DNA of 49,270 bases from Candidatus Aenigmatarchaeota archaeon (GCA_016932615.1 JAFGCN010000017.1:1-49270); one strand, 5' to 3'; shown: positions 1,676-37,800, counted from the first letter of the stretch. Translations and numbers: made by a program. Notes: generated from the sequence alone by a model not told the origin.

Positions 1676-2144
1676 AGCATCAAAGGGCCAGATGCTTTCA
1701 TTTGATTTCCTGATTGTGTGCTCGGTTTTCCTTTTCCTCGGAGCGCTTTTAGTCATCCAGGCGGGATATGCCGTAAAGGAGTCGATGGAGATTGAGCGAA
1801 AGGATGTTATTTTGAGGGATGCGAACACCCTGGGGGAAATTTTTTTCAGGGAGGGGTATCCGCGAGACTGGAATGCAGCGAATGTGCAGATACTGGGGCT
1901 TGAATCTTCAGGAAGGATTAGCGATGAAAAGCTGGAAAAATTTGGGCAGCTCGATGTAGGGCGTACAATGATCCTTATGGGGCTTGAAAGTGAATATAAT
2001 ATTACCGTTTTATGCGGCGATGAAGTTGTTAGGTCGTACGGGGCGGCTTATGATGGTGCCTCGTCTATTGTCAAGAAAGAGCGTGTCGTGGTTTTGGAGA
2101 ATGGGACTATTGCAACAGTAAGGGTTCTTGTTTTTGAAAGATGA
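1650..2144 (+). CDS. Small pilin-like protein with a class III signal peptide (alternative TTG start at 1668)
   Basis: SRASKGQMLSFDFLIVCSVFLFLGALLV contains KGQ followed by a hydrophobic helix. The stop overlaps the ATG of the next gene (atga at 2141-2144). Confidence 0.55.
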   Translation: MEPASTLSRASKGQMLSFDFLIVCSVFLFLGALLVIQAGYAVKESMEIERKDVILRDANTLGEIFFREGYPRDWNAANVQILGLESSGRISDEKLEKFGQLDVGRTMILMGLESEYNITVLCGDEVVRSYGAAYDGASSIVKKERVVVLENGTIATVRVLVFER

Positions 2145-5100
2145 AGGGAATTGTGTTTTCGCTGGATTTAGTGCTGGGGATTTCACTTATGGTGCTTCTC
2201 CTGGCATCAAATTACTATCTTTTTTCGCCACAACCCTTTTATGAGGAAACCGGGATGGACCAGAAGTCTGCCCTTGCAAGAGATTTTCTGGAAGCTCTTG
2301 CAACGATGCGCGTCAATGAAACAACACAAAGCCCGACGCTTAACCAGCTCAAGGGAGGAGGGCTGACGGACGATGAGATGGAACTTTCTGTCCTGGACTT
2401 CATTTTGACCTACTGGGCTTACTCGAATCGGGAGGGTGATTACACTAAAAGGGATTATGCGGAAAATATAACAAAGGAACTGATAAACGCCACAAGGTGC
2501 CTGGAGCGATATAATTTTTCCCTTAGCATAGGCAGCGACCCGGTGGTTGGAGACTATGCCGGCACGCAAAATTCTGTTGTAGTTTCCTCCCTGATTGAAA
2601 ATACCTACAGCTCAAACTCAAGGCATGGCTATATGGCAAGGGCTTACCTGAATGGGATAAAAACTGAGCGGTCAAGATATTTGTACTTTGGAGGGTTTGT
2701 GGGTCAGGGAAATATTTCGGCTCTTCTTGAGCTTCCGGAATATGAGTCTGTTACCGGGGCGGAGCTCAATGTTTTTTCCGGGGCAAACCTGTCTCTTTAT
2801 ATAAACAGTAATTTTTCGGGGTATTTTTCCATAAACGAAAGCGCCCCTAATTTTACCGCAAATATTGTTTCCTCCGGCATCAACATCTCCAACTTCCGGG
2901 AAGGTAACAATACCTTAGGGATTTTATTTAATTCCACGGATTACCGCTATTCATATATTGGAGGTGGATTTCTTCGTGTCGATTATACAACAAGTGCCTT
3001 TTACGATGAAAAGCCGGGTCTGGTTGAGGAATACAGATTTCCTGGAATAGAAGGGCTTATCAATGTTTATGATGGGGTGTATCTTCAGGGAAACGTCACC
3101 GAAATACACCTTCACTATTATAATGAAATCCCGGGTTCTGAGGTTTACCTTAATTTTGCCAATGCCACGCTTTACAACAGCAATGCTTCCGGGGAGTCAT
3201 TAATTGAACTCAATGAATCGAACATTTCCGAAGGCCTTGCGGGGGCAGGGCTTAATGTGCAGGGTTTGACAGGAAGCACTGTGCCCTTGAGGGTGGGAAT
3301 AAGGAGCCTTAATTATACCCGGGGTCAGGGTTTTGGAGATGCCGTGCTGATAACTGATGTTTCTGGCAGTATGAGCACGTGCGATGTTTACTCGAACAAT
3401 TCCTGCGACTGCGATGCGCCTCCACCATGCTACCGAAACAGGATAAATGTTGCAAAGGATTCCGATCGGGAGTTTGTCAGTGGAATGCTGGGGCTTAATG
3501 GAAACAGGGTTGGGCTCGTCTCTTTCGATGATGCGCTTTCAGGATCCATATCTCTGACGGGGGACAACCAGACGCTTCAGAGCGAAATAGATACCTATGT
3601 TTCCGGTGGAGGAACTTGCATATGTTGTGGTATTGAAAAAAGTACAGAACTTCTTTCACAAAAATACCTTTCCGTTGACGCTTTGCCGAGCGGCTCGATA
3701 TGGAAGTACACTACAAGCTATCCTCTTTTGGCCCCTCCGGAAATGGACGGAAGAAACTGGACCGACAAAGACTACAATGATTCCGCATGGGCGGAGGGTC
3801 CTGCTGCCCTTGGATTTTTTAACATAAGCTGGGACTACCGAAGGCAGCTTAACCTTTCAAATGCCGCCGGAGCCCTTTACAGCTATCCTGTCAGGATATC
3901 AATTAACCTTTCTGGAGATTACTCTGACGGCAGGGTAAAGCAGTACTGTGGGGATGCAAGGTTTACATATTATAATTCAACCTCCGGCACCGAAACTGAA
4001 CTTCCCTACCTTATTGAAAGCTGCAACCTTTCTGGCAGCGACAATGCCACTTTTTGGGTCAGCGTGCCTTACATGGCTGCAAGCTCAGAAACAACACTTT
4101 ACCTATACTATGGAAACCCCTCAGCATCCCCTGGAAATAACCTTTCAATTTGCCCCGCAGGTGTTCAGGGCGGAAGATGCCTGCTGTTTTATGGCGGCTT
4201 TGAGGATTCTTCTGCCGTCGGACCTACAGGGTTTAATACTTCTGTCTGGTCGGTGGATTATGGAAGCGATGGCGATGAGTGTAGAGTTCACACAGACTCG
4301 GCGGACGTGCGCACTGGCTCTTGGGGTGGGGAGATGGAGGAAGGCGACGAGGGAGAGGTTGCCATAAGCACTCGTGATGGGCTGCTGAACCTTTCGGGCT
4401 GCACTAACTGCCGTCTTGATTTTTGGATTAAGCTCACCACCAACTGGGAAGATGCTGACCGGATATATGTCGATGTTTATGATGGCTCCTGGCATTATGG
4501 AGAGCTGAATTTGAATGGAGAAACTTACGATACCGGAAACTGGCACCAATTTACACTCAATCTTTCTGAGTATGATACCTCTAGCCCAGTCAGGGTGAGG
4601 TTTGATAATGAAGCTAGCGATGATAACGAGGAAGCTCATCTGGATGATGTAATGATATATCACTATGCCCTCTCCGAGCCGTATCTTGGATCGATAGGCA
4701 GCCAGGAAGGGACAACTGCCGTATTAAGTTCGAATGTCTCCACAGTTTTGGCAAATAATGGTGGGGACTACTACTTCAGGAAAAAGTTCTTTATCGAAAG
4801 CACAGAAATGCTAATAAATTCTTCCCTATATGTTTTTTCTGACGATGCCGCTGAAGTTTACCTCAATGGAAACCTTATCGACAATGATACTTCAGAGCAT
4901 AATGCCTCCTACTGGAACCGCGTTATGCCTTTTGATAAATCTCTTTTCCGGCTCGGCTGGAATGTGGTTTCTGCAAGGGTTAAAAATGACGACTCCTCTG
5001 CGGCTCTTTTTGACCTGCGCCTGGAAACTGTTGTCGGAAGAAAAAGGGCAATGCTTGTAATGAGTGATGGCGGTGCTAATTATGAGTGCACACCCTGGCA

Positions 5101-6013
5101 GTACAGCACTTATCAGGGTCCGGTGGATGCAATCCAATACTCCTGCAATGCGAGGGATGACAATATTACGGTATATTCTGTTGCTTTTGGCTCTGATGCA
5201 GACACACTAACACTCAAGAAAATCGCCTGCTGGAACTGCTCTGCAAATAATTGGCTTCCAGGGGAAAATGAGACCAACTGCTCGAAGTACTTCCAGAGCA
5301 ACAATGAGGAGGAGCTTATGGAAATCTATAAGAGGATAGCTGATGATATTGTCAACATGTCTGCGCAGCGCCAGGCGGTTTACGTTCAGGGTGACTGGGG
5401 CTTTAGAAACGTGCTGTACAATGATTCGCGTATGAGCATAAACCTTACAGAGGAATCAGTTTTTGGAGAAGGTGAATTTTTGCTTACCTTTGAGAAAAAC
5501 TGCACAGGCGGATACTGCATTCTTAACAAGTCTGCTGATGTTTCCCTGATTGACGCAAGAGTTACTTCTTATTCGGGTGATTATTGGGCCGACCTGATTC
5601 AGGTTTCAAACTCTTCAGGGCACGTTTCAACGATTTACAACTTGTCAACATATGGGGATTTTGAAGTTCTGGGAGACCCTTACAGCATAAAGCTTCCTTC
5701 GGATTTCTTTTCCGACGGAGCAAACAACATTACGCTTTATCACGGCATCGAGAACGGAAACCCTCAAAACCAGTCGAAGGCATACCGGGTCATATATTCC
5801 ATAAAAGTTCCGGGTTCGGTGGGATATGGTGGGGATGAATTTGTGTTTAATACCTCACAGGAGGCAAGAGACAATGCAACTGAGCGGCTTATACAGCATA
5901 TTGAATCAAAGACCGGAGAGGAAATCAGCAGCTATGAGATAAGCACTTCTCTTACAATAGAAGGCATAAGGGAACTTTCACAAATTGCTCTTGTGAGGTT
6001 TATTATGTGGTAA
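2141..6013 (+). CDS. Large pilin-like-N-terminus surface protein with an interrupted vWA domain. A jelly-roll (LamG/ConA-like) and a PA14-like region lie in the insertion. Candidate pilus-associated adhesin.
   Basis: N-terminus MKGIVFSLDLVLGISLMVLLL is pilin-like. The vWA metal-ion-binding (MIDAS) motif DAVLITDVSGSMS is near nt 3340, followed by NRVGLVSFDD and SGGGTCICCGIEKSTELL. The rest of the vWA (RAMLVMSDGGANYEC...ITVYSVAFGSDADTLTLKKIA) appears only near nt 5040-5235. Dozens of N-x-S/T sequons throughout. Confidence 0.75.
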   Translation: MKGIVFSLDLVLGISLMVLLLASNYYLFSPQPFYEETGMDQKSALARDFLEALATMRVNETTQSPTLNQLKGGGLTDDEMELSVLDFILTYWAYSNREGDYTKRDYAENITKELINATRCLERYNFSLSIGSDPVVGDYAGTQNSVVVSSLIENTYSSNSRHGYMARAYLNGIKTERSRYLYFGGFVGQGNISALLELPEYESVTGAELNVFSGANLSLYINSNFSGYFSINESAPNFTANIVSSGINISNFREGNNTLGILFNSTDYRYSYIGGGFLRVDYTTSAFYDEKPGLVEEYRFPGIEGLINVYDGVYLQGNVTEIHLHYYNEIPGSEVYLNFANATLYNSNASGESLIELNESNISEGLAGAGLNVQGLTGSTVPLRVGIRSLNYTRGQGFGDAVLITDVSGSMSTCDVYSNNSCDCDAPPPCYRNRINVAKDSDREFVSGMLGLNGNRVGLVSFDDALSGSISLTGDNQTLQSEIDTYVSGGGTCICCGIEKSTELLSQKYLSVDALPSGSIWKYTTSYPLLAPPEMDGRNWTDKDYNDSAWAEGPAALGFFNISWDYRRQLNLSNAAGALYSYPVRISINLSGDYSDGRVKQYCGDARFTYYNSTSGTETELPYLIESCNLSGSDNATFWVSVPYMAASSETTLYLYYGNPSASPGNNLSICPAGVQGGRCLLFYGGFEDSSAVGPTGFNTSVWSVDYGSDGDECRVHTDSADVRTGSWGGEMEEGDEGEVAISTRDGLLNLSGCTNCRLDFWIKLTTNWEDADRIYVDVYDGSWHYGELNLNGETYDTGNWHQFTLNLSEYDTSSPVRVRFDNEASDDNEEAHLDDVMIYHYALSEPYLGSIGSQEGTTAVLSSNVSTVLANNGGDYYFRKKFFIESTEMLINSSLYVFSDDAAEVYLNGNLIDNDTSEHNASYWNRVMPFDKSLFRLGWNVVSARVKNDDSSAALFDLRLETVVGRKRAMLVMSDGGANYECTPWQYSTYQGPVDAIQYSCNARDDNITVYSVAFGSDADTLTLKKIACWNCSANNWLPGENETNCSKYFQSNNEEELMEIYKRIADDIVNMSAQRQAVYVQGDWGFRNVLYNDSRMSINLTEESVFGEGEFLLTFEKNCTGGYCILNKSADVSLIDARVTSYSGDYWADLIQVSNSSGHVSTIYNLSTYGDFEVLGDPYSIKLPSDFFSDGANNITLYHGIENGNPQNQSKAYRVIYSIKVPGSVGYGGDEFVFNTSQEARDNATERLIQHIESKTGEEISSYEISTSLTIEGIRELSQIALVRFIMW

Positions 6014-7408: not shown

Positions 7409-7837
7409 TTACTGGAAGTATCCGGATTGAAGTGTCTGCGTTCTTGTCTGTGAAAGTGAGCTTCCCGCTTTTGTGTAGGTCAGGCTGGCACCAACATCAT
7501 TTGCTCCGTTATTAGGTACATAGAGTATAAATACCTGGTTTGCATTGACCGTTGCTGGGCTTGGAAGAACACATCCGCTGGGAAGGCATGCTGTCAAATT
7601 TATTCCTTCCCCCCTGTTCTTAACTTCAAGCGCGAGGTGGCTGCCGTTGTACGAGTGTGCATTGTATGCAAAGTCGCTGAAGCATGGTGTGCAAGGTGGG
7701 GTAGTTGTGCTTGAGCCGGAGCTGAATACTCCCATGGAGTAAAGGGCAGCTACTGCAATTACAACTATCGCTATTGCTATGCCGTAAGTCATTAAGTATT
7801 CTAAGGACACCTGTCCTTTGAATCTTCGTGCATTCAT
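7409..7837 (-). CDS. Archaeal type IV pilin (class III signal peptide); likely major pilin
   Basis: MNARRFKGQVSLEYLMTYGIAIAIVVIAVAALY is the canonical positively charged residues, KGQ, then VSLEYL hydrophobic helix. The C-terminal domain is S/T-rich with N-x-S/T sequons. Confidence 0.8.
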   Translation of the reverse strand: MNARRFKGQVSLEYLMTYGIAIAIVVIAVAALYSMGVFSSGSSTTTPPCTPCFSDFAYNAHSYNGSHLALEVKNRGEGINLTACLPSGCVLPSPATVNANQVFILYVPNNGANDVGASLTYTKAGSSLSQTRTQTLQSGYFQ

Positions 7838-11129: not shown

Positions 11130-11183
11130 TTCCAATTATCCAGAATTATGCTTATATATAATAATCTATCTAATACTATAGTT

Positions 11184-12593
11184 ATGGCAAGCCTTTTGCA
11201 GCACTTCGAAAGAGCTTTTAGTGCTTACCGAAAGAACCTGATTCCGTATACATTCTCGGCGCTTCTTGTTTGCTTTGCTGCCGTTTTTGTCATGTTCCTT
11301 GGAATGCTTGTTTTCGTGCTTAACTCGGAGTCTGTCTTTTACTCGGAGGAGTTTATGAACCAGGCGGAGCTTGACCCTGCAGTAGTGTTGCTCGCATTGA
11401 TGACACCGGGAAACATAGCGATACTCTTTACCTTCTCTTTTTTGGCTCTCGTTGCATTCCTGTATATGTCTGCCGGAGTTTATGGAGTTTGTCTTGAGGG
11501 GCTCAGGGGAAGAGTCTCTGTAAGGGCATTTTTCAGTTCCGTTGCAAGGCGTGGCGGGTCGTACCTAATCGCTTCACTCATCCTTTTAGGTTTCCTGATG
11601 GGATTTATCGTGCTTGCAATGTTTGTTCCAATATTTCTTTTTGTAAGCATGCCTGTTGCTGCGGCAGTTCAGTCTTATCTTGTCTGGTTTTTGCTCATTT
11701 ATTTCCTGGGCTTCCTTCTTACGCCTTTCTTCTTCTCTGTCCTTCCAGCCATAGTTTCCGGAAGGGGGATAATAAATGCTTTCAGGGAGAGTATGGCTGT
11801 AGGCAGGGATAATTACCTTGAGCTTTTGCTTCTTGAGGTGCTTCTCTTTACAGGTTTTTTTGTTTCTGCGCTCATTCCATACATTTGGGCGGGAATTTTG
11901 TTTTTCATTTCCGTGCCTATTGCTACATTTGTCAACTGCTCCTTTTACCTTGACAGGGTAAGCCCAGCTAAGATGGGTGCGCACAAAGAATCCCCAAAGC
12001 AACCTTCCGGGCAGAGAAGAATTCCTGCAAGGGTTATGCCTGCCAGGGCTGCGGCTGAAAACCAAAGGCCTGCAAAGGAAAGCGAGTTTATAGAGGAGCC
12101 GCCCGTTGACTTTACAGTTTCAGAGTCAAAGAAAAAGCTTGTTTCGGAGCTTAGAGAAAGGGCTATTTCGGAAGACCGGAAAAAACAAGGGCAAAAGAAA
12201 AAGCAGGTGTCCGCTGCAACCGCCAGAAAGAAGAAAAAAGATACTCTCAAGACAAAATCGGCAAAGAAGCCAAAGTTGAAGAAGCCGATTGTGAAAAAGA
12301 AGCCTGCAGAAAAAAAGCAAAAAAAGAAAGTGCCTGTGAAAGAAGCCCGCGCGAAAAAGGCAGGCCCAGCAACTAAGGAAACTGCTGCCGAGCCCGCAGC
12401 AATTGCCCCCATTCCAAGCGCACCTTCAAAAGCTCCTTTAAAAAAGAAGCCCGTGAAGAAAGTGAAAACTCCTGCCGCAAGGCATTCAATTGTGCAGAGG
12501 GCAATTGCAAAGCACACGACTGCAAAGAACCGGGACATTGAGCTTTTCCAGCAGCTGGAGTTGCCAAAAAATAAGCCAAAGAAGGGCAAGTGA
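11184..12593 (+). CDS. Polytopic membrane protein with a C-terminal histone-H1-like lysine-rich tail of about 140 aa (alternative start 11148)
   Basis: About 6 predicted TM helices (e.g. IPYTFSALLVCFAAVFVMFLGMLVFVL). Conserved SGRGIINAFRES segment. The tail reads KKQGQKKKQVSAATARKKKKDTLKTKSAKKPKLKKPIVKKKPAEKKQKKKVPVKEARAKKAGPATKE. Paralogous to the next gene. Confidence 0.6.
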   Translation: MASLLQHFERAFSAYRKNLIPYTFSALLVCFAAVFVMFLGMLVFVLNSESVFYSEEFMNQAELDPAVVLLALMTPGNIAILFTFSFLALVAFLYMSAGVYGVCLEGLRGRVSVRAFFSSVARRGGSYLIASLILLGFLMGFIVLAMFVPIFLFVSMPVAAAVQSYLVWFLLIYFLGFLLTPFFFSVLPAIVSGRGIINAFRESMAVGRDNYLELLLLEVLLFTGFFVSALIPYIWAGILFFISVPIATFVNCSFYLDRVSPAKMGAHKESPKQPSGQRRIPARVMPARAAAENQRPAKESEFIEEPPVDFTVSESKKKLVSELRERAISEDRKKQGQKKKQVSAATARKKKKDTLKTKSAKKPKLKKPIVKKKPAEKKQKKKVPVKEARAKKAGPATKETAAEPAAIAPIPSAPSKAPLKKKPVKKVKTPAARHSIVQRAIAKHTTAKNRDIELFQQLELPKNKPKKGK

Positions 12594-17842: not shown

Positions 17843-18955
17843 TTACTCCAGAAGCCCTTTATTTTCCTCAATTATCTCCCTGAAGGCGTTTACTACTCTG
17901 TCGATTTCAGCGTCGGTCAGGAGGTAAGTTGAGAGTTTCATAGACTTTGTCCTTCCGGGCTTTATTCCGCCGATGCCCCGGTCTTTTAATGCCGAGTGGA
18001 GGAAAAAGCCCCTTTTCTTGTGCTTTTCGGAAATCCTGAAGAATGGATTTGTTTCAAAATTCAGAAGGTCGTGATTGTGCGGCTTTTCGCCGAGCTGAAC
18101 CATCCCAAGCTTTTCCATTTCCCTTGAAAACCTTCTTGCCTTTTCAATCTCCTCATCCCATCGTTTTATTCTCTCTTTAACAGCAGGAAAGGAGGCAATA
18201 AGTGTCATCAGCGTTGCGCCCCTTGAAGAGCAGCCAAGAATCTCTACTTCCTTGTTTTTGGCAAGCGCGCTTATACGAAACAGCTTTTCAGACCATTCCT
18301 TTGTGGTTCCCAGGACCCCGATGGGCCCGCTTGCAGCCATGGACTTGTGGCCTGAGCCAATTATGAAGTCAGCGCCTAATTCAGTCATGGATAGCGGCAT
18401 CCTTCCTACAGAGTACGCGCCGTTGATTGCAAAGGGCACTTTGAAGTCCGAGCAGATTTTTGCAAGCTTTGCGGCGTCAGGCAGGTTTCCATAAGACCCG
18501 TCAGGGTAAGTGAGGACAACAAGCGCGGGCTTTTCCTCCTGCAAGAACTTTACGTAATTTTCGACGTCGATTTTGTGTTCCGGGCTTCCCGAGGAGTCGA
18601 CCATTTTTACGTCAAGCCCCGAAAGCTCGGCTGAAACGAGCGTCGTGTAGTGGGCATTTCCGTCCACGAGCACGTATTCCCCGTTGTCTTTCAGGGTGTG
18701 CATAATGGCGAACATCGCTTCTCTTGCCCCGTTCGTTGTCCTTGCAACGTCGCAGCCCAAAAATTCCGGGAGGTCTTTGTAGATGAACTCCTGAATGTTT
18801 GGCTTTTGCACCATATCGAGCCGCCCGCCGCAGAAGTCGCATACCGAGTAGCCGTCCCCCCATTCGACCAGGGCCTGTTTTGCTTCAGGCGTCAGAATTC
18901 CTCCTCTCTGGATAGGGTTAAGGTTGATTTCAGGGCGTTCGCGTGCAAGGTCCAT
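17843..18955 (-). CDS. pscS: O-phosphoseryl-tRNA:Cys-tRNA synthase (SepCysS), PLP-dependent
   Basis: NLNPIQRGGILT near the N-terminus. CDFC at residues 39-42, Arg79 and His-Tyr at residues 102-103 correspond to the catalytic residues Cys39/Cys42, Arg79 and His103/Tyr104 described for Archaeoglobus SepCysS. GSGHKS provides the PLP-binding lysine. 370 aa. Confidence 0.7.
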   Translation of the reverse strand: MDLARERPEINLNPIQRGGILTPEAKQALVEWGDGYSVCDFCGGRLDMVQKPNIQEFIYKDLPEFLGCDVARTTNGAREAMFAIMHTLKDNGEYVLVDGNAHYTTLVSAELSGLDVKMVDSSGSPEHKIDVENYVKFLQEEKPALVVLTYPDGSYGNLPDAAKLAKICSDFKVPFAINGAYSVGRMPLSMTELGADFIIGSGHKSMAASGPIGVLGTTKEWSEKLFRISALAKNKEVEILGCSSRGATLMTLIASFPAVKERIKRWDEEIEKARRFSREMEKLGMVQLGEKPHNHDLLNFETNPFFRISEKHKKRGFFLHSALKDRGIGGIKPGRTKSMKLSTYLLTDAEIDRVVNAFREIIEENKGLLE

Positions 18956-22696: not shown

Positions 22697-24664
22697 TCAT
22701 ACTTCTTTAATCCCAAGTTCCCTTAGGTACTTGAATGTTTTGTCATAGAACTCTGGAAGTCTGGTGGCGTCATTAAGGTCTCCTTCAGGTATAAATATCA
22801 CTAGGCCTTGTCTTGCCCGCGTGAGCAGTACTCGATAAGTATTTTTTAGATAATTTTGGTTTTCCTTTTCTCTCATAGTTTGCCAACCTTTTCCTCTGAA
22901 AAGTTTATAGGCCCAACCCCCATCTTCAAATCTGAGGTCAGCGTCCCATGCGACACACACCCAATCAAGCTCTAGACCTTGTATGTCAAATTCTGTAGCC
23001 ACATCTTCAAGATAGAATGATGATCTAACATCTTCTTTAGGATTTAAGAACCAATTTTTGGCATTAATCTTTACCTGGACGCATAACCCATAGGGTTTTA
23101 GTCTATATGCTCCAGAGCTAGCGACGAGACCTATTCTTTCTGAACCTCTTGCTTTTTGTTTCAGCCAGACTTTTGCTTTATTGATGTCCCTCGTAACCAC
23201 AATTGGGTATTTACCCTCTAACTGAGGGACTATATCTATTGCAGATTCTTTATCGCAGTCTAAAAGCGATTTGATGAACTTGGATACATTTTCACTTCTG
23301 AATGAGCGAATATCTGTGCTTAGGTGTAAATCCTCAATAGAATGATATATTAATTCACCAAGTAGCTCTTGGAGGTTAGCCCCTTGAGTATATTCTACTT
23401 CAGATATCTCTGTTGAAAGATAGATTTGCCAATGGGCGAACTTTTTTCTCAATGCTGTGAACCATTCAGGCAAACCGGCCTCCCCCGTATTTATCTCTTG
23501 ACCTCCACCAATCAAGCATATAATAACTGCCCAGTCTTTGTGGCGATCCATTATGCTGATTAGAAACTCTGGTTCAGACATGTCAAAATTTAGGACTCCT
23601 TTTTTCTTCTGCATAAATGCCGAGGTTTGTTTGTGGGTCCATGCTCTTTGGGCTTCATCGAAGATTACAACCTTCTCAAGGGGAGGGGTCTTAACACTTA
23701 AGGCATCATCTCTAAAGTGATGAATATTTTGAATGAATGCTTTGGATTTCTTTAAAGCTTTTGTCTTTGTAACTTTCTCTTGGGAAGTTTTAACCTCGTT
23801 TCTAGCTAACGCCTCTTGTAATACGTCTACTAGGGGGCCATTTCCGGATAAAAAGACCGCATGCTCTTCTTCAATGAATTTGTGCCTTTCATTTGCTAGA
23901 TTCAATCCAGCAAGAGTTTTTCCTGCCCCCGGAACTCCAGTAATAAAACAAATCGCTTTAATTTTTTCTTGTTTTGCTTTATCAATTATTTGATTTATGG
24001 CTTCTGCAGTTCTGCTTAGATTAATCTTTCCAGAATCCGAACGGGATATTTCTTCAACACTATGCCCCTGGTATAAGGCCTGTGCGGCTTCGATAATTGT
24101 GGGTGTTGGCATATATACTGAATTTTCCCAGTCGTAAGGGTTAATTTCTCTTTCCTTGTGTTTGGTAAGGACCTCAGCTATGGTTTTGGAGAGATTTGAG
24201 GAGTTACAATAGAGGGGTTGAAAGATGCCATCTTCATATACCTTCAACTCAGCGTGTTTCTCAGGAGCATTAGTTGCTACTAGAATGGGCACTAATTTAA
24301 TATTATGGCTCCCTTCTTGAAAATTTTTTAGGTCTACAGCATAGTCCACCACTTGATCTATTGCACTTTTTGGATAATCTGAACTGCCTACCTTGAATTC
24401 TAGAACAAAAACCATTCCCGATACAATGAGTATTACGTCTACCCTGCGACCCATTCTTGGGATTGAATACTCGAAAAGAATATGGCCTTTTTCGAAGTTC
24501 GCCAGTTGTTCTTTAAGTAGGATTATTTCCTGCAACCAAGCGTTTCTTTGTTGCTCTTCTAATCTAAATTCATGATTTTCAGTTAAGTTTCCTAAAATTG
24601 TCTGAGAATCATCTGTTAAGAATTCACTCAAGGGTCTTGAATAGTAAGAGCGTTTCATAATCAT
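22697..24664 (-). CDS. DUF2075-type nuclease-ATPase (N-terminal PD-(D/E)xK/NERD-like domain fused to an SF1-like P-loop NTPase); defence-associated family
   Basis: The N-terminal GRRVDVILIVSGMVFVLEFK gives a D...E-x-K nuclease motif. Walker A FITGVPGAGKT, Walker B VVIFDEAQRAW and C-terminal VLLTRARQGLVIF (SF1 motif VI-like). Markedly AT-richer than the flanking genes. Confidence 0.75.
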   Translation of the reverse strand: MIMKRSYYSRPLSEFLTDDSQTILGNLTENHEFRLEEQQRNAWLQEIILLKEQLANFEKGHILFEYSIPRMGRRVDVILIVSGMVFVLEFKVGSSDYPKSAIDQVVDYAVDLKNFQEGSHNIKLVPILVATNAPEKHAELKVYEDGIFQPLYCNSSNLSKTIAEVLTKHKEREINPYDWENSVYMPTPTIIEAAQALYQGHSVEEISRSDSGKINLSRTAEAINQIIDKAKQEKIKAICFITGVPGAGKTLAGLNLANERHKFIEEEHAVFLSGNGPLVDVLQEALARNEVKTSQEKVTKTKALKKSKAFIQNIHHFRDDALSVKTPPLEKVVIFDEAQRAWTHKQTSAFMQKKKGVLNFDMSEPEFLISIMDRHKDWAVIICLIGGGQEINTGEAGLPEWFTALRKKFAHWQIYLSTEISEVEYTQGANLQELLGELIYHSIEDLHLSTDIRSFRSENVSKFIKSLLDCDKESAIDIVPQLEGKYPIVVTRDINKAKVWLKQKARGSERIGLVASSGAYRLKPYGLCVQVKINAKNWFLNPKEDVRSSFYLEDVATEFDIQGLELDWVCVAWDADLRFEDGGWAYKLFRGKGWQTMREKENQNYLKNTYRVLLTRARQGLVIFIPEGDLNDATRLPEFYDKTFKYLRELGIKEV

Positions 24665-28847: not shown

Positions 28848-31800
28848 ATGTCACTGCCTTGGAAAAAGGGGTCGAGCGCTTCATTTAAATTGAGTCTATG
28901 CCTGATAACGCTTATTTTGCTCGCCTTTTGCGTTAATGCGGACACTTATTCGGCGTTTTGCACCACAGGCACCGAAATTTATACAGATAAGCCGGATTAC
29001 GAGCCGGGAGAGACTGTGAATATTACCGGGCACGGCTTTCTGCCAAAGGCACCATTAAATATTACGATTACCCGGCCGGACCGTGTTACCGACTCCTGCG
29101 GCTCTTCTTCCTGCTATTTTAGGTTCTTGAATGGCACCCTGATATCCGACAGGGAAGGGTCTTTTTTTGATTATCTTTACCTTCTTAACGGCATAACCGG
29201 AAATTACACCGTCCGGGTGACTGACGGCAAAAATTATGCGGAATTCTGCTTCATGGATGGCCGGAATATTACAAACGTGACTCTTGACGGCTTAAGCAGC
29301 GTTTCAGTTCTTCCAAGCGCTTCCATTACTGCTGCGGTAACCCTTGTTTCGACATCCGGCAGCTACTGGCGCTCCACAATGTACCAGATTGAGGGTGAAA
29401 GCGCCGTGTGCGTGGATACGCCAGACCACACTGAGTCAGGAACTCACACTTATACAGAGCCCTTTTCAATAACAGCCCCTTCTGCGCCCGGCGTTTATGA
29501 TGCCAGTTTTATCGCTTATCTTAACAATGACTGTACAGGAAGCAGCCCAAGCAATACCTATACTTTAATCGACGGCATAACAGTCACATCTGACGCCGTA
29601 TGCGGCGATGGGGAGATTGAAGCGCCCGAATCCTGCGATGATGCTAATACCGACGATGCTGACGGCTGCTCGTCTTCCTGCCAGGTGGAATCCGGCTGGT
29701 CCTGCGCTGGTGAGCCAAGCTCTTGCGCAGAAGTGTGCGGAAATGGCATAATAACTGCAACCGAGGAGTGTGATGATGCCAACACTGATGACTCCGATGG
29801 ATGCGGCTCATCCTGCGCCATTGAAGCCGGTTGGTCCTGCACAGGTGAGCCGAGTGAGTGCCTGGTGTATAATCCTGCCCTTCCAAGCTCTTGCGGAATA
29901 GATATTGCGCTTATTATAGACAATTCCGGGAGCATTGACAACTCGGAGCTCACGGCAATGAAAAACGCGTTTAAGGGCTTTGTTGACGCTTTCCTGCCGG
30001 ATACCCCCACCCACATAGCGGTTGTCAAGTTCAATACTGATGGAGACCTTGTTTTGGACTATAGCGGAGACGCAACCGAAATAAAGAATGCAATTGATTC
30101 GGTGTCGACAAGCGATGGCTACACCAACTGGGACGATGGGCTAAAGGAGGCGCAGGATGAGTTTGACAACTCGCCAAAGCCGGACTTGTACGTTTTTGCT
30201 TCTGACGGGCAGCCGAACCGCCATGGCGACCCGGCAGTGGATGGAGAGCCCGAGTCTCTTGCTGCAGCTATAGAAAGGGCAAACCAGTTAAAGCTGTCTG
30301 GCGTAAGGATAATCACTCTTGGAATTGGCGTTACAGGTGACGGCGCTTCCAACCTTAAAGCAATCTCAAGCGAGGATGCCTACTATTCCTCAGGATTTGA
30401 CACCCTTGCGGATGACTTGGCTGACCTTGCCGATGAGCTTTGCGGAGGCACGATAACAGTAAGGAAGCTGGTTGACGGAAGCCCTGCAGGCGGCTGGGAA
30501 TTTTCGGCAAGCGTAACCGATGGAGAATCAATCCCGGCAACTTCCACAACCGGTGAAGATGGCTTCATAGACCCGGTTTTTGACATAAACATAACAGACA
30601 CGGTTTCAACTGTGGACATAACAGAAACTCCCAAGCAGGGATATAATTTTGTCAGCGCAGCTTGCAAAGACCAGGATGAAAATCCGGTGGGAACGCCTGG
30701 CGTTGGAACGGTTACTGGAATAGTGATTGGTCCAAATGATGCGGTTTACTGTGAATTTAACAACAGCGGGGTTTTGTGCAGCGAGCACTCCAATTCAGAG
30801 TCCTGTGAGGAAGATGAGGGCTGCAAGTGGTGCCCTTCCTGCAACAACCCTTTCAGGAATGTTTATTATCCTCTCGGAAACTGCATAAGCGAGTCTGCTG
30901 AATGCGCCTGGAATGGCTGCTCGGTCGAATGCGGAGCCGAGTGCGATACTGAGACTCCATGCCTTCCAAAGCAGGATGAGAATTACTGCTACTATGGCGG
31001 AGAATGCAATTCCTCATGCTTATGCGGTTACTTGTCCCAGTTCTGCCCACCACCTGGGACTGAAGATAATGGAACCTGCTACTATGGCGAGCAGTCCTGC
31101 ACCGAAAACGGCTGCCAGGTTACAAGCGCAGAAATGTCTTGCCCGGGGCTTGTTTGCGATGAGATTCTTGGCCCTGTGGACATGATTGGGCCTGTAACCA
31201 GTAATTTCACTGCTGACCCGATTCCACCTCAATTCCTTCCAGGGCCACTTCCAGCAAAGTGGCTGGTAAACATCAGCGCCCTTGAAACAGAGGACTGCTC
31301 GAATGTTTCTGCTGCGGAATATTTTGTTTCAAAGAATGTTTGCTATTATCCTCCGGACACTGAGAGGGGAACGCCTATGGGTGCGCTTGACGGCTCTTTT
31401 GGCGGGCTTGTGGAATTGGTAAACACAACTCACACATTTAATGAGGAAAACGACGGGCTTTACTGCTTTTCCATAAGGGGCAAAAACGACGCTGGCTACT
31501 GGGGCAATATATACTGCGACTGCATAAATGTGGATACCCAGGTTCCGCTTGACCCGACAAATGTTACGCTTACGCCTTATATATGCAACCAGAACAGGAC
31601 TTTGAACGCAAAGGTCTGTGACGCAGAGTCGGATGTTGTGGGCGGCGAATATTATTTTGACATATTTACGGACTGGATTCCTGGCGGGCAGGGCCTTTTG
31701 ATGTATGTGCAGAGCCAATATGTACTTGAAGAGCCCGAAGGAAGATATTTTTGCGCTAACCTGAATGCCACTATAGACGTCACAAATGTGTCTGATGGCT

Positions 31801-34800
31801 GCCACTGGGTGCGGCTTCACGGAGTGGATGATGCTGGAAACTGGGGAAAGCCAAGCCCCAACTACCAGCACAAGTTTATACTTGATAAGACCCCTCCAAG
31901 GACAAACAAGATGATTAATGGAACGGTTATTCCTTGCGATTTGGCAGATGACGGCGAGGGCAACGCGCTTGACGCAGGGTGCTTTTACACCGTGCAGGGA
32001 ACCGAGATTCTTCTCGAAGGGTTTGATGACCTTGGGTCCCAGAACGAATCCTGCCGGGCGGAATCCCTGACAACCTGGTACAGAATCAGATGGAGAAATA
32101 ACTGGACAAGCCCTTGGGAGGACTGGTCAATCTGGACTCTTTACAGGGAGCCGATTGTCCTGAGAGAAGACTCAATACACGAGATAGAATATTATTCTGA
32201 AGACTCGTGTGGAAACGCGGAAACTCACCACTACGAGCTTGACATAGTTGACACTGCGGAGCCGAAAACCGAAAAAACAATTGAAGGAGTAAGGCTTGAA
32301 GGCGACGGCCAGACTTTTGACTGGTGGATTACCCAGGAGTCGACAATTATCCTTAACTGTACAGATACTGACCCTCACCCTGTCAGCGGAGTAACTCTTT
32401 ACTGGAGGTATAAGGTGGATGGTGGGAACTTTACCGGCTGGAATGAGGTGTTTGGAGGATATGATGCTTTCAGCTATCCTGAAGACTCGGTTCACACACT
32501 GGAATATTACTGCACGGATATTCTTGGAAACAGGGAAGAAACGCAGGTTGAGGTCGACAAGGTGGACACAACCCCGCCTGAAACTAACAAGACTTATGGC
32601 TGGCCATTGTTCGATACTGATGGCTCATACCCCAAGTGGATAAACTCCAGCACTCCCGTCACATTGGAATCAACTGACGGCGGCGAAATATGCGCAGTCG
32701 GAGTCGATAAGACTTACTGGATGAACACGATAGTTAACGATTATATGTGCGAGGAAGCGCCTCTAAACTGCCAGCCAGTCCATGACTTCGAGGATGAGGG
32801 CTGGACAGAATATACTGCCCCGTTCTACAAGACTGAAACCTCATGCCACCTTATAGAATACTGGTCTGAAGACAGGCTTGGAAACCGCGAGAGAATAAAA
32901 GCCCAGTGCGTATTCGTGGATAACGAGCCGCCGGTAAGCGTGAAAGGCATTCAGGGGCCTCAGATAGAAACTGACTGCAGGGAGATTGGTGAGGGTAACT
33001 ACTCGGATGGCTGCTATTATGTGACAACTGAAACTGAGGTCACCTTGGAATGCCGGGACTCTCTACCACACCCGGTCGGAAACGTTGATTTATTCTACAA
33101 AATCGACTGGAAGAATGCTACAGGAGACACCTGGATTTCCGGAACCTGGATAAAAAGCACAAACCCGGTTACATTTTCGTACGAAAATGATTCTTTCCAC
33201 CTGCTCGAGTGGTACTGCATAGACGCCCTTGGAAATGCCGAAGAAGTTAGAACCGAGCTTGACATGGTTGATTCAAGCCCGCCTGAGGTAGTAAAGCAAG
33301 TGAACGGCGCCCTAATGGGAAACAGCACTATTGATTGGTACCTCAATGGCACTTCAAACATCACACTCAACTGCACGGATGTCATGCCCCACCCTGTCGG
33401 CGACGTTACGCTTAACTGGACTTTATACTGGAGCGAGGAGTGTATCAGGCCGGACTGGGAGGAGCTTGCAAGTGGAGTCACCGATGGCTACAAGTCATTT
33501 ACAAGCTTCAGGGATTCCTGCCACAAGCTGGTTTACTGGTGCTCTGACGCCCTTGAAAACACGGGCCCTCTTACAGAAGAAATTGACGCTGTTGACACCA
33601 AGCCGCCGGTTTCATGGAAGGATATTAACGGCACGTACGTAAACTGCACAGAGGGAGAGGTTTGCGACAAGTGGATTACCCAGAATACACTTCTTGAGCT
33701 TTACTGCGAAGACCAGGCCCCTCACCCCGTGGGCGGCGTTAAGATTTATTACAGGTACTTTGTGGATGATGTCCTCTTCCAGGACTGGACAGAATACACA
33801 AGGGCGATAAATTATGGCGAGGACTCGGTTCACCGGCTTGAGTGGTATTGCGTCGATGCACTTGGCAATAAGGAAGAGACCCAGGTTGAAATTGATAAGG
33901 TGGACACAACCCCACCTGAAATGAACAAGATTATCGGAGAGCCGAAGATTGAATGCACTGAAGGTGAGGGCTGCGATTACTGGCTTCGCGACCACTACAC
34001 AAATATCACCCTCGACCCTGTTGATGGAGGAGACGTTTGCGCAATAGACCGGGTGCAGTGCGATTACTGGTACCTTGTAAACAACACGACCTGGGAAGGG
34101 CCGTTTGAATACAGGGGGCCGATAGTGTTTACTGAGGACTGCCTTCACGAGCTCCACATTTCCTGCCGTGATGCCTTAGGCAATGTAGTTAACGATACTG
34201 AACTTTTCAGGGTTGACTCACAGCCGCCGGTTACTGTCAAGAGCTTTATCGGCCCGAAGTATCCTGCCTCCGAAAAGGACGAGGAGCAGTTTGAGCTTAC
34301 TGAAGAGCAGGCAGAAAACTTTTGGATGAGGGACCATGTGACTGTAGTTGAGCTTAACGCGACAGACACAATAGAGCCATGTGCTGTCGGCATAAGAGAG
34401 TTGTGGTACCGGGTTGGAAAGGACATGGACGGAGACGAAATGGTCGATGGATTGGAGATGGGCAACTGGAGCGTCGTTACAGGAAGCTATGTAAACTTCA
34501 CGGTTAATGAGGACTGCCTTCACAAAATTGAGTGGTACTCAGTGGATATGCTTGGAAACACTGAGGAAAAGCGGTCCCAATACCATAGGGTCGATTCAAC
34601 GCCGCCGGTTACAACAAAGACTTTCGATGGCCCTACCTGGGACGACACAGACAAGACAAATCCCTACTGGGAAAATTACTGGGTTTCAAATGAAACTGAT
34701 ATAATACTTTTGGCAGTCGATGAGGCAAGCCCTTGCGCTGTTGGCGTGGACTACATACACTACGAACTCTGGTGGGACTCTGACGGTGACGGAGAAGTCG

Positions 34801-37800
34801 ACATGAAGATTGATGATGAAAATGCCTCCTCTTCAATCGTTACAATTAACCTTGAGCGGGACTGCATTCACAAAATTGTCTGGTATGCAGTAGACCTTCT
34901 TGGAAACCCTGAAGATGAGCATATACAGTACCACAAGGTAGACCAGACCCCACCCAGGACTTACAAGCTGATTGAAGGGTCGATGTGCAATGCAACTGAA
35001 GAGGACCTAGAGCTATTCAACCTCACTCTTGATGAGGAAATAGAGTCCTTCTGGCTTACAAGCAACTCTACCATAACACTCTCAGCGGTTGAGGGGATGA
35101 CTAACTGCTCATCAGGGCTTGACCACCTTCACTATGAGGTTTGGTACAGCGAGGACGGAACTGGAGATGAGTGGGTGAAGTTGGATGAACAGGACGTGCC
35201 TGCAAACGGAAGCTCAGAACTAAACACTACCCTAACTCTTGGCGAGGACTGCCTTCACAAAATTGTCTGGTATGCCGTCGACCGGGTTGAAAATATAGAA
35301 AAGGTACACATTCAGTACCACAGGGTCGACAACCACGCGCCTGAAATCCTGAAGGAAGTCGGCTGGCCAAGTATTTACATGGGCAAAAACCCTCAGACCG
35401 GAGAGGATGCCTGGGATATTACCACCGATACTCCGATAAGCCTTGATGGGACTTACGATGCTCTTGAGCCGTGCGCTTCGGGAAGGACAAAGATCGAGTA
35501 CAGCATATGGTACGATGGAAGCGGAATCTGGGACAGCTGGAAGACTTACACTGGAGAGTTTAACCTTCTTGGCGACTCCACCCACCGGCTGAAAGTGAGG
35601 GTCACGGACTGCCTGGGAAACACAGTTGAAGATATAGAGACTTTCGTGGTCCATGAGAATCTTCCGGGTGAGGAATGCAAGGTTCCAATAAAGTACTCAG
35701 GAATGTTTGGCTGGGAGTGGCGTTCAGTAGAGATACCTGAGATGATGGTGGACCTGTACACAAACGACTCGAGAATGTGGAATGTCATGAAGCTCATGGA
35801 AGGACAGTATGATATCATCTACTTCCAGGACTACCTTACTGGGGACTGGACCTCTTATGACCCTGAGCGGCTGAACAACGAAACAGGAGAGCCGATGAAC
35901 AGCCTGAATGATTTTGACCAGGGTCCCGGAAAGTATTATATAAAGCTCAAGGATGACGCAAGGTACATGAGCTACTTTGTCATTTTCAATGACCTTCGGG
36001 AGGGCTGCTCCATGGATCTTACGGAGTGCTGGGACCGGCTCGATAACGATGCTGATGGGTACTGGGATTACCCTTACGATACGGAGTGCCTGGATAGAGA
36101 GGATGGCCTTGAGATTTCCGTTTGCGGAAATGGCATCACGGAGCGGTTTGAGGAATGCGATGACAATAACACGCAGGGAGGAGATGGTTGCTCAGAGGAA
36201 TGCACGCTTGAGCTGGTAAATGACTCCTGCGTTTCCGAGAAAGGTTATACTCTTAATGCCGATTTCGATGAAGGCACTTTGTCGGGTCTGGAACACACCA
36301 CCGTCCCAGACCAGCTTCAGATTATTGAGGGGCAGGTTACGACCTACCCGATACTTTGGGTTGCAAATGCCGGGGAAGATTCTGTTTCGAAATGGGACAC
36401 TTCGCAGAATAGGGAGCTTGCAAGGTACCACACCTGGTTTGGAGTTCTTGCTGACCATGGGGCATGGTCTGGCGCTGCCCCATCCAGGACGGCAGTTGAC
36501 ACTGACGGAAACTGCTATGTCGCAAACAGGCACTTTGACGATTACCCGGCAGATGTCATAAAGATTCTTGCAAATGACTGGATTGACAGGAACGGAAACG
36601 GGATAATGGACACTTCATATGACGCAAACAATAATTCAGTAATCGAGGGGGGGGAAATGCTCCCAATGAATGACACAAATGGAAACGAAAGGATTGACCC
36701 CGAGGAGATAACCGATGAGAGGGTTGCCTGGGTTGCGACTGTCGGGCCTTCAAGTGGCCTTGGAAGGGGGCTTGCAATAGACCTCGAAGGAAATATCTGG
36801 CTTGGCCTTTTCAATGAAAGGTCCTACTATAAGCTTAACGGGACTGACGGAAGTGTAATTCAGGGCCCGATTTATGTTGGGGCGCACACGCCTTATGGCG
36901 CTTTGGTCGACCGATATGGCTTCCTTTGGGGCGCATCCCTTGACAATAACCTGCTTAAGCTTGACACCAATACAGGAAACTGGACGATTTATACGCACAG
37001 CGGCAGCAACTATGGAATTGCTCTTGGATATGACTCTGAGGGCAGCACCCAGGTTTATCTTGGGTACCATAACCCTTACCTTCAGTTTAATTCTTCCGAT
37101 GAGACCTTCAGCCAGCCGGCAACTTCAGACTATTATTCTTATGGAGTTGCGACGGATTCAGAAGGGAACATCCTTTCCGGCAGCAACTCGGATGGCCGCA
37201 TGGGAAAATACGCGCCTGATGGAAGCTTGATATGGCTTGCTCCTGCACAGGTGGCCTCTGAGATAAGAGGCACTGTTGTTGACAGTGATGATAATGTCTG
37301 GGCAATTCACAGGGGAGACAGCAAGATGGCAAAGTTCAACGGAACTGATGGGTCTCCTTTAGGTGTGTTTGACACGGGACTTCAGCCATATACCTATAGT
37401 GATGCAAGCGGGCTCGGGCTTAGGGGCTCTATTTCAGTTGGGGTATGGACGGTTGTCTTTGACTCGAAAAAGAACGGAACTTCTTTTGACGCGGTTTCCT
37501 GGACGGGCTATTCCCCTAACGGGACATCAATTACCGTGAAGGTGAGAAGTTCTTCAGATAATTTGTCCTGGTCCTCCTGGGAGACTGCGCAAAATGGCGT
37601 TTCTCTCAGCACAACACCTGATGGAAGGTATCTTCAGGTTGAAGCTACTTTGAAGGGTGTTGCAGGTTCCGAGTCACCAATACTTTATGACTTGTCTGTT
37701 CAGGCGACCTGTTCAGACGATCTGGATGCAAGGATTGATTCATGCACAGACCTTGATGGGGATGGTTATTCCATAGAGGGAGAGGATTGCGGTCCTGTCG

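Follow-up and report, generated by a model that had tools for sequence, protein, structure and literature searches.

The window analyzed here, a 49,270-nt stretch comprising a whole contig of a Candidatus Aenigmatarchaeota archaeon, carries an operon in which three small pilin-like genes precede a large ORF for a 1290-aa protein, with further genes for a 415-aa anchored protein and, on the opposite strand, a candidate major pilin (Table 1). The protein on record at NCBI for this metagenome-assembled genome, [quoted passage not shown] is identical to the product of the large ORF, whose reading frame is unbroken and whose GC content is even along the gene. The protein is extracellular in character; it contains 51 NxS/T sequons (3.95 per 100 aa), whereas cytosolic proteins encoded in the window have 0-0.5 per 100 aa. 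An NCBIfam search of the protein gave zero matches, and the Pfam search found none for the regions at aa 28-399 and 1081-1290, both of which are nevertheless conserved in the family.

Table 1. Coordinates of the 1290-aa protein, its domains, and neighboring genes in the window
Feature	Residues or length	Position (nt)	Strand	Basis or remark
Small pilin-like gene 1, MKG/QISVE	131 aa	915..1310	+	QxSxE motif; weak Class_IIIsignal match
Small pilin-like gene 2, MRC/QASVE	122 aa	1307..1675	+	45.8% identity to equivalent L001 gene
Small pilin-like gene 3, KG/QMLSFD	164 aa	1650..2144	+	weak DUF7287 match, E 0.031
Whole ORF	1290 aa	2141..6013	+	read from sequence
Putative class III (prepilin-like) signal/anchor, MKG/IVFSLD then hydrophobic stretch		2141..2221	+	sequence; N-termini of 60 homologs
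N-terminal region, family-conserved, 18 N-glycosylation sequons	aa 28-399	2222..3337	+	present in short and long homologs
vWA, N-terminal half	aa 400-508	3338..3664	+	VWA_2 E 9.4e-9; pLDDT >90; invariant MIDAS
GH2_N-like sandwich, first strands	aa 509-559	3665..3817	+	profile A2 vs 6ed1
Nested module 1, DUF2341 region	aa 560-680 (Pfam match aa 603-667)	3818..4180	+	PF10102
Nested module 2, CBM/MAM/reelin-subrepeat-like beta jelly roll	aa 682-845	4184..4675	+	
Galactose-binding-like sandwich, remaining strands (GGDYYFRKKF ... ALFDLRLE)	aa 870-965	4748..5035	+	profile, pLDDT, DSSP
vWA, C-terminal half	aa 966-1080	5036..5380	+	
C-terminal region, family-conserved	aa 1081-1290	5381..6010	+	aligned in short and long homologs
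Protein with N-terminal hydrophobic anchor, 13 sequons	415 aa	6015..7262	+	38% identity to L001 15236-16465
Candidate major pilin, KG/QVSLEY	142 aa	7409..7837	-	weak Class_IIIsignal match

Our results show that aa 400-508 and 966-1080 together make up a single complete vWA domain, split by an insert, in which the MIDAS is intact. The motifs on which a first-pass annotation had based the same proposal are all found in this ORF where it placed them: DAVLITDVSGSMS starts at aa 400 (nt 3338), NRVGLVSFDD occupies aa 454-463, and SGGGTCICCGIEKSTELL occupies aa 488-505, with RAMLVMSDGGANY (aa 969-981; nt ~5045) and ITVYSVAFGSDADTLTLKKIA (aa 1009-1029) following the insert. The halves match complementary parts of Pfam profiles, aa 402-507 corresponding to positions 2-91 of the 107 in VWA_2 (E 9.4e-9) and aa 966-1030 to positions 102-152 of the 174 in PF00092 (E 9.7e-4). 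In silico removal of aa 509-965 improved the VWA_2 match to E 1.4e-12, covering positions 2-106 of 107, and brought PF00092 to 35.1 bits (curated cutoff, 23.8); each match was then a single stretch crossing the splice point, and a solved vWA structure, 4rck_A, aligned to residues 6-215 of the 234 spliced residues. The N-terminal half contributes beta1 with the MIDAS residues D406-x-S408-x-S410, a Cys-rich loop, alpha1, beta2, beta3, MIDAS T492, and a helix, and the C-terminal half contributes beta4 with MIDAS D976, alpha4, beta5, alpha5, a second Cys-rich loop, beta6, and alpha6, so that both the DxSxS...T...D motif and the complete Rossmann-like alpha/beta fold of the vWA superfamily are present. 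The five MIDAS residues do not vary across an alignment of 94 sequences, both halves are modeled by AlphaFold2 with pLDDT above 90, and the distance from the MIDAS Thr to the MIDAS Asp, 483 aa here, is 25-30 aa (29 in most) in 34 short homologs. The split itself is thus borne out by the complementary halves, the splice, the invariant MIDAS, and the short homologs, while its limits needed adjustment: the C-terminal half does start near nt 5040 but extends to about aa 1080 (nt ~5380) and not to nt 5235, and the insert, put at ~460 aa, is present but is refined to aa 509-965 (nt 3665-5035), or ~455 aa.

The insert is in turn interrupted, and the nesting has three levels: the vWA domain encloses a galactose-binding-like sandwich, which encloses a DUF2341 region and a jelly roll. 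A profile (A2) that joins aa 509-559 to aa 870-964 finds the sugar-binding domain of the GH2 structure 6ed1 at E 3.7e-8 (profile positions 4-131) and also 7kmm, 4cu6, and 3w5m, and some family members match Glyco_hydro_2_N and BetaGal_ABD2, relating the sandwich to GH2 N-terminal sugar-binding domains. Its first piece carries the motif W..Y...W....Y.DS.W..G...LGF; its C-terminal strands are modeled with pLDDT 83-96, with DSSP strands E574-586 then E588-595, and the final strand continues nearly straight into vWA beta4. The segment previously read as PA14-like is accordingly the C-terminal two-thirds of a GH2_N-type sandwich whose first strands lie ~310 residues upstream; the query has no PA14 match, and 2 of 22 spliced homologs match weakly (E 0.008). 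DUF2341 (PF10102) is a clear member of the insert at E 5.6e-10 and 40 bits, against a curated cutoff of 23.4; the first-pass annotation had overlooked both this domain and the nested topology. The DUF2341 region is all-beta (block-mean pLDDT, about 71-81), and a comparison with PDB sequences found no relative. For the jelly roll, the profile search against PDB sequences returned nothing significant (reelin at E about 1), and the Laminin_G profile gave no support for a LamG/ConA label. Inside the large AlphaFold2 model, the nested modules have low confidence (pLDDT 30-80). On the basis of fold and superfamily resemblance, the inserted modules probably bind sugar.

All long forms of the family carry their insert, of ~154-842 aa, at the identical site; it is lacking in the 34 short forms, which have 25-30 aa between the MIDAS Thr and Asp, and in one of these (P0022) an 8-residue loop, GQSEPSRN, takes its place. 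In one homolog (P0062), the insert is ~154 aa and the galactose-binding-like domain is uninterrupted; the inserts of other homologs contain Laminin_G_3, DUF2341, Reelin_subrepeat-B, or InhA-like MAM domains. In P0121, the jelly roll is instead a C-terminal appendage on an unsplit vWA domain; this protein was the sole match in a homolog search with aa 560-868 alone, a search that missed the query itself through a word-index limit. The junction from the galactose-binding-like domain to beta4 is covered by one aligned stretch in at least 130 proteins, 66 of which are new 50%-identity representatives, and the proteins bearing it come from Aenigmarchaeota, Woesearchaeota, Nanoarchaeota, Nanohalarchaeota, and Altiarchaeota. 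A neighbor-joining tree built from non-insert columns and carrying no support values intermixes short forms with long ones, and the MIDAS and core are conserved equally with or without an insert. The loop that joins beta4 to the helix following the MIDAS Thr is a permissive hot spot. According to DSSP, the insert departs after that helix and returns directly at the start of beta4, a strand topology from which it would exit the vWA domain opposite the MIDAS face; because of this placement, the direct coupling of lectin-like and MIDAS binding suggested earlier is unsupported. Since this one site is occupied by different modules in some relatives and empty in others, the insert looks like a swappable adhesion cassette. 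It is possible, if somewhat doubtful, that the alpha3/beta4 loop is a true cassette exchange site at which recombination between alleles or paralogs has, time and again, added, removed, nested, and exchanged lectin-like modules.

The N-termini of 60 homologs share the consensus [KR][GA]-h-h-F-[ST]-h-[DE] followed by ~20 hydrophobic residues. The acidic residue is at +6 family-wide, whereas +5 is the usual position; Pfam and NCBIfam gave no significant class III profile match, nor any TadE/TadG or pilin domain match, for the protein. The operon is collinear, gene by gene, with a locus (L001) in which a short-form ortholog adjoins a T2SSE ATPase gene and two T2SSF genes. Pilin-like genes 1 and 3 are 44.5% and 36.8% identical to the L001 genes at equivalent positions, the latter sharing its variant N-terminal motif with the 1290-aa protein, and L001 has two tandem copies of the 142-aa candidate pilin, at 47-49% identity. 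The order with three small prepilin-like genes is kept in both Aenigmarchaeota and Woesearchaeota. No assembly ATPase or TadC-like gene is present within the window, which ends inside a divergent CBS/HTH gene, and tblastn of the L001 ATPase, T2SSF, and CBS proteins found no match in it. This divergent upstream gene encodes CBS and HTH domains, but it does not resemble the L001 gene significantly, and at this point the synteny is therefore one of position only. The closest structural matches of the 1290-aa protein are pilus tip adhesins. Large DUF2341 proteins at archaeal type IV pilus loci have been predicted to be tip adhesins (PMC4858521), and a DUF2341 protein of the Methanococcus epd locus was hit in a screen for transformation defects (PMC10133366).

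Split or decorated vWA domains are already known from pilus adhesins, and our findings overturn nothing in this respect. The topology has a precedent: in an AlphaFold3 model of Caulobacter CpaL, the vWA domain is likewise split by beta-rich domains (PMC12607857). The CpaL insert (residues 204-383) lies ~40 residues after DxSxS and before the MIDAS Thr and consists of two six-stranded barrels without recognizable relatives, whereas the insert described here lies between the helix of the MIDAS Thr and beta4 and consists of three nested lectin-like sandwiches of ~455 aa. The CpaL/TadG proteins (Caulobacter crescentus, A. actinomycetemcomitans), minor pilin-like vWA proteins of Tad pili, also come from bacterial hosts, and the DPANN protein, with no TadE-like match in Pfam, shares with them a vWA domain split by a beta-rich insert as a topology, in another loop, but not the TadE-like domain. 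The tip adhesins RrgA, GBS104, SpaC, PitA, and Mfa5 carry the arms ARM1 (38 aa) and ARM2 (98-123 aa), located within strand C and after beta4, which form a lid over the MIDAS (PMC7835359). Compared with these arms of sortase-assembled and type V (Mfa5) pili, the insert described here sits before beta4, on the opposite face, and comprises full autonomous domains; in Mfa5, RrgA, and GBS104, moreover, the vWA domain is the guest inside an Ig-like domain. Streptococcus sanguinis PilB, a modular type IV pilin, has a contiguous vWA domain with two small arms flanking the MIDAS, and its crystal entry comprises 420 residues compared with 1290 aa here. In integrins, the alpha I domain is inserted in a propeller and the beta I-like domain in the hybrid domain; nested insertion with a vWA domain and MIDAS is common to both systems, but in integrins the vWA domain is the guest, whereas here it is the outermost host. 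PilY1/PilC resembles the protein in its large size, its vWA domain, its gene position behind the minor pilins, and its presumed location at the pilus tip; it differs in not being a pilin and in its C-terminal beta-propeller, a domain to which Pfam found no match here. Archaeal DUF2341 proteins were likened to PilY1 by Makarova et al. (PMC4858521). The DUF2341 proteins of euryarchaeal epd loci (arCOG03508; MMJJ_08210) resemble ours in containing DUF2341, in the setting of an archaeal type IV pilus locus, and in their predicted function as adhesins, a comparison made by description and through DUF2341 only; the accessible parts of PMC4858521 and PMC10133366 do not mention a vWA scaffold or inserted topology. 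No account of the present family in DPANN archaea turned up in our literature searches.

Taken together, these observations make it fairly probable that the protein is a giant, glycosylated, pilin-like DPANN adhesin displayed at a tip, with a complete MIDAS-containing vWA core and a MIDAS-distal hot spot holding nested lectin-like modules. The ORF product would carry a class III signal peptide, presumably cleaved, and would be coproduced with the three proteins resembling minor pilins as part of a type IV pilus-like system, its most likely position being the pilus tip or close to it. Its vWA core may bind a ligand via a divalent cation at the predicted MIDAS, while the hot spot houses the galactose-binding-like sandwich, itself opened for the DUF2341 region and the CBM/MAM-like jelly roll. 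These modules probably contribute glycan or surface binding beside the MIDAS and probably do not regulate it. Attachment to host cells or substrates might thereby become multivalent and lineage-specific.

The split could in principle be an artifact of chimeric assembly, frameshift, or gene fusion, but we found nothing in favor of this, and the unbroken frame, the identical protein on record, the even GC content, and the recurrence of the junction in independent proteins from many samples lead us to dismiss such an origin. A regulatory role for the insert deserves more weight, in which ligand binding by the lectin-like modules would make the vWA domain switch between a closed and an open MIDAS, or the influence would run the other way, as in a coincidence detector or mechanosensor like the integrin I domain. 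The junctions at either end are very short: ~4 residues follow the helix, and the last sandwich strand passes directly into beta4. This ties the insert rigidly to the core sheet. Integrin I domains do relay the state of the MIDAS to the MIDAS-distal face. The vWA domains of PilY1 and CpaL have also been discussed as mechanosensors (PMC12607857). Allostery nevertheless appears unlikely to us, given that the insert is attached on the face opposite the MIDAS, that MIDAS and core conservation does not depend on it, and that closely related backbones differ freely in whether they have an insert, in its size (up to about 840 aa), and in its makeup, a pattern that fits an add-on better.

Other alternatives concern the pilus. 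The protein may keep its membrane anchor uncleaved and serve as a cell surface adhesin at the level of the S-layer, merely cotranscribed with pilin-like genes; its very large size, its heavy glycosylation as judged from the sequon count, the displaced acidic residue, and the missing profile matches for a class III signal or pilin domain are consistent with this. We regard it as improbable, however, since the prepilin-like gene order is kept in Aenigmarchaeota and Woesearchaeota alike, the [KR][GA]-plus-hydrophobic motif is found family-wide and its variant recurs in the adjacent 164-aa pilin-like protein, and tip adhesins are the closest structural matches. The gene layout, in which a large vWA protein comes after minor pilins as in fimU-pilVWXY1E, could also indicate a factor that primes pilus assembly in the manner of PilY1 and whose insert binds the cell's own envelope glycans and not external targets. 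Deletion of CpaL lowers piliation (PMC12607857), in keeping with such a role, but the variation of the insert among close relatives points to external, diversifying targets, and we consider this reading very improbable, although a role in assembly would be compatible with adhesion. We retain the tip-displayed adhesin as the preferred reading.

DPANN archaea depend on physical contact with host cells, and their attachment proteins are nearly uncharacterized. The split-vWA family offers a concrete and widespread candidate for such proteins, in which a constant, predicted metal-dependent core combined with a variable lectin-like cassette provides a handle on predicting host or substrate specificity. 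The insertion, nested to three levels, exists naturally in "empty," "one-domain," and "nested" forms at a single position, which should also make it useful for studies of permissive-loop evolution and for the engineering of vWA scaffolds. If the loop does act in cassette exchange, the family would be an archaeal counterpart to modular receptor-binding proteins, and the host or surface range of episymbiotic archaea would be set by the inserted modules, with the vWA domain as a constant chassis.

Our results confirm that the vWA domain of the target protein, a candidate adhesin, is split, and support a refined interpretation of it as a three-level nested insertion. The target is identical to a database protein named 'DUF2341 domain-containing protein [Candidatus Aenigmarchaeota archaeon]'. 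In a Pfam search, its aa 402-507 matched VWA_2 positions 2-91 of 107 (E 9.4e-9) and aa 966-1030 matched VWA positions 102-152 of 174 (E 9.7e-4); the two segments are complementary halves. When aa 509-965 were deleted in silico, the resulting 234-residue sequence matched VWA_2 over positions 2-106 of 107 (E 1.4e-12) and PF00092 with 35.1 bits (cutoff 23.8), each in one stretch over the splice point, and the solved vWA protein 4rck_A aligned with it as a single stretch (residues 6-215). Among 119 homologues, the short forms (848-970 aa) matched query aa 1-505/517 and then 967/1001-1290, with few residues between. Across 94 aligned sequences, the MIDAS residues D406, S408, S410, T492, and D976 were invariant, and the spacing from Thr to Asp was 25-30 aa, mostly 29, in 34 short forms; it is 483 aa in the query, 183 aa in the insert-bearing homologue P0062, and 330-871 aa in other long forms. 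The peptide motifs quoted in the first-pass annotation were all found where it had placed them, and its proposal of a vWA domain divided by an insert is borne out by the Pfam halves, the splice test, the homologue alignments, and the MIDAS spacing. These argue against the alternative that the N-terminal segment is a complete, shorter vWA followed by an unrelated domain. The C-terminal half extends further than had been proposed, to about aa 1080 (nt ~5380), and the bounds of the insert were revised to those in the table.

The two modules of the insert, previously taken to lie side by side, are instead nested: the outer module is one beta-sandwich formed from aa 509-559 and aa 870-965, and the second module, a jelly roll (aa 682-845), lies within it. 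Many Woesearchaeota-type homologues share query aa 2-561 and 865-1229 and differ in the intervening material, and the sandwich is unbroken in P0062 (...GRAALGRNLAGLNTLIRRYTGDYYFRKKF...). An outer-module profile, built from the spliced domain of 22 family members, matched, over positions 4-131, the sugar-binding domain at the N-terminus of a GH2 enzyme (6ed1, E 3.7e-8), as well as the equivalent domains of sialate O-acetylesterase, BgaC, and rhamnosidase. Since individual members matched Glyco_hydro_2_N and BetaGal_ABD2, and a profile search for PA14 gave a weak match in 2 of the 22 and none in the query, the earlier term 'PA14-like' is imprecise, and 'galactose-binding-domain-like' fits better. 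Galactose-binding-like modules also form tandem arrays of 6-8 copies in the giant proteins P0122, P0125, and P0133 (1507-2352 aa); the JGI name of P0122, 'single-stranded DNA-binding protein', looks like a misannotation. The jelly roll is autonomous: in P0121 (519 aa, 791-kb contig), a C-terminal domain 45% identical to query aa 682-839 follows an ordinary, unsplit vWA, so that this module is appended to a vWA there and sits nested inside an insert in the query.

The insertion loop is a hot spot, not a one-off. In some homologues it is empty, and in others it holds the sandwich, either by itself or with nested modules of various kinds: DUF2341 in P0005, Reelin_subrepeat-B in P0054, an InhA-like MAM in P0086, and Laminin_G_3, DUF2341, and Reelin_subrepeat-B together in P0030. 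When query aa 865-1090 were searched against 1.84 billion cluster representatives, 332 proteins matched, 118 of them at E <= 1e-10; a single aligned stretch crossed the junction from sandwich to beta4 in 130 proteins collected, 66 of them new representatives. The named members all come from DPANN or related archaea (Aenigmarchaeota, Woesearchaeota, Nanoarchaeota, Nanohalarchaeota, Altiarchaeota, and Norongarragalinales). Insert-free and insert-bearing proteins were interleaved in a neighbour-joining tree from 760 non-insert columns (P0024 and P0028 adjoin P0006; P0020 adjoins P0009, P0010, P0004, and P0007), which suggests that the insert may have been gained, lost, or exchanged repeatedly; because the tree carries no support values, this is a lead rather than a result.

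In the vWA fold, the parallel strands point with their C-terminal ends towards the MIDAS. The structure model has the helix that follows T492 stop at aa 504 and the sandwich begin with a strand at aa 509. The last sandwich strand (aa 954-966) is followed almost at once by beta4 (aa 968-975), and beta4 in turn leads up to the MIDAS Asp976 at its end. As the insert thus enters at the N-terminal end of beta4, the modelled topology places it on the face opposite the MIDAS, which would argue against one binding surface common to the lectin modules and the MIDAS and would be compatible with allostery; the functional coupling between them proposed in the first-pass annotation is unsupported. A second insertion hot spot lies on the MIDAS face, directly after DxSxS, in the query and in P0058, P0065, P0068, P0079, and P0093. 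Several homologues have ~145 extra residues there, without a Pfam match; the loop of the query at this site is 20 residues long, four of them Cys.

In integrins, the vWA is the guest domain, the reverse of the arrangement in the target. The closest precedent for the target is Caulobacter CpaL, a TadG orthologue, whose AlphaFold3 model combines a pilin-like module with one vWA; two beta-barrels that project away from the MIDAS leave this vWA 'divided between two distinct segments', 148-203 and 384-626 (PMC12607857). The CpaL insert, for which no relatives can be recognised, comes ahead of the MIDAS Thr; the target has a nested insert of known lectin-like folds, placed after that Thr and before the MIDAS Asp. 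In the sortase-pilus and type V pilus adhesins RrgA, GBS104, and Mfa5, the MIDAS is covered by a lid formed from the ARM1 (38 aa) and ARM2 (98-123 aa) insertions (PMC7835359), which differ from the insert of the target in both site and scale. The 'modular pilin' idea was established by Streptococcus sanguinis PilB, with a contiguous vWA (PMC8179133). Our literature search turned up no account of this DPANN family.

Features of the target locus and of other genes in the window
Feature	Position (nt)	Strand	Details
Divergent gene, partial	1-~895	-	Lys-rich N-terminus; CBS pair (E 5.4e-9) and HTH
Three small proteins upstream of target			N-termini MKG/QISVE, MRC/QASVE, KG/QMLSFD
Target ORF	2141..6013	+	1290 aa, uninterrupted
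Loop after DxSxS	~3374-3433	+	aa 412-431
Insert	3665-5035	+	aa 509-965
Anchored protein			415 aa; directly after target
Candidate pilin	7409-7837	-	142 aa; KG/QVSLEY
481-aa protein	11148-12593	+	481 aa; multi-pass hydrophobic N-terminal half; long Lys/Pro/Ala-rich tail
PLP enzyme	17843-18955	-	SepSecS family profile PF05889, E 1.9e-40
Schlafen group 3-like helicase	22697-24664	-	PF09848, E 2e-86
Second giant surface protein	28848-38471	+	3207 aa; 129 Cys; 65 sequons

In a run of co-oriented genes, the target gene comes fourth. Its product begins MKG/IVFSLD, followed by a hydrophobic stretch, and the N-terminal pattern [KR][GA]-h-h-F-[ST]-h-[DE] is kept across the family. Each gene of the operon has a collinear counterpart (37-49% identity) in L001, an orthologous locus from another Aenigmarchaeota genome, where the orthologue of the target is the short, insert-free form; a Woesearchaeota locus has the same order, with small genes preceding a giant vWA protein. 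In L001, a divergent gene lies between the pilin operon and genes for a T2SSE ATPase and two T2SSF proteins; our contig breaks off within the corresponding CBS/HTH gene, and the window therefore gives no view of the ATPase. This gene occupies the same position as the separating CBS/DUF4423 gene of L001 and could be a regulator of the locus. The KG/QVSLEY candidate pilin, single in the window, has two tandem copies in L001 (17229-17636 and 17728-18135, minus strand; 47-49% identity). With 51 N-glycosylation sequons, the target reaches 3.95 per 100 aa, versus 0-0.5 in the cytosolic proteins of the window, in keeping with an extracellular protein.

Elsewhere in the window, the 3207-aa protein has a contiguous, ordinary vWA (aa 352-519; PF00092 profile 1-167 of 174, E 7e-15), alongside a SpaA-like prealbumin-fold domain and DUF4215 repeats; the genome thus encodes vWA adhesins of both kinds, split and unsplit. 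The Schlafen-like helicase gene lies in the GC-poorest stretch (0.404 versus ~0.47) and may be an acquired defence gene. For the PLP enzyme, SepSecS, SepCysS, or another relative are candidates.

A passage in PMC4858521 proposes a tip adhesin role for the large DUF2341 proteins of archaeal type IV pilus loci, and one in PMC10133366 describes such a protein, from the Methanococcus epd locus, as recovered in a transformation-defect screen. Taken with this literature, the gene neighbourhood, N-terminal motif, synteny, and sequons lead us to read the target as a pilus-associated modular adhesin, probably located at the tip. It would undergo signal cleavage, and its putative lectin-like modules would bind sugars; the vWA with its MIDAS would form the constant core, to which the inserted cassette may add further, lineage-specific binding. 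At one permissive loop, the family displays a natural series that runs from empty through single to nested, and it is a candidate determinant of host attachment in DPANN archaea.
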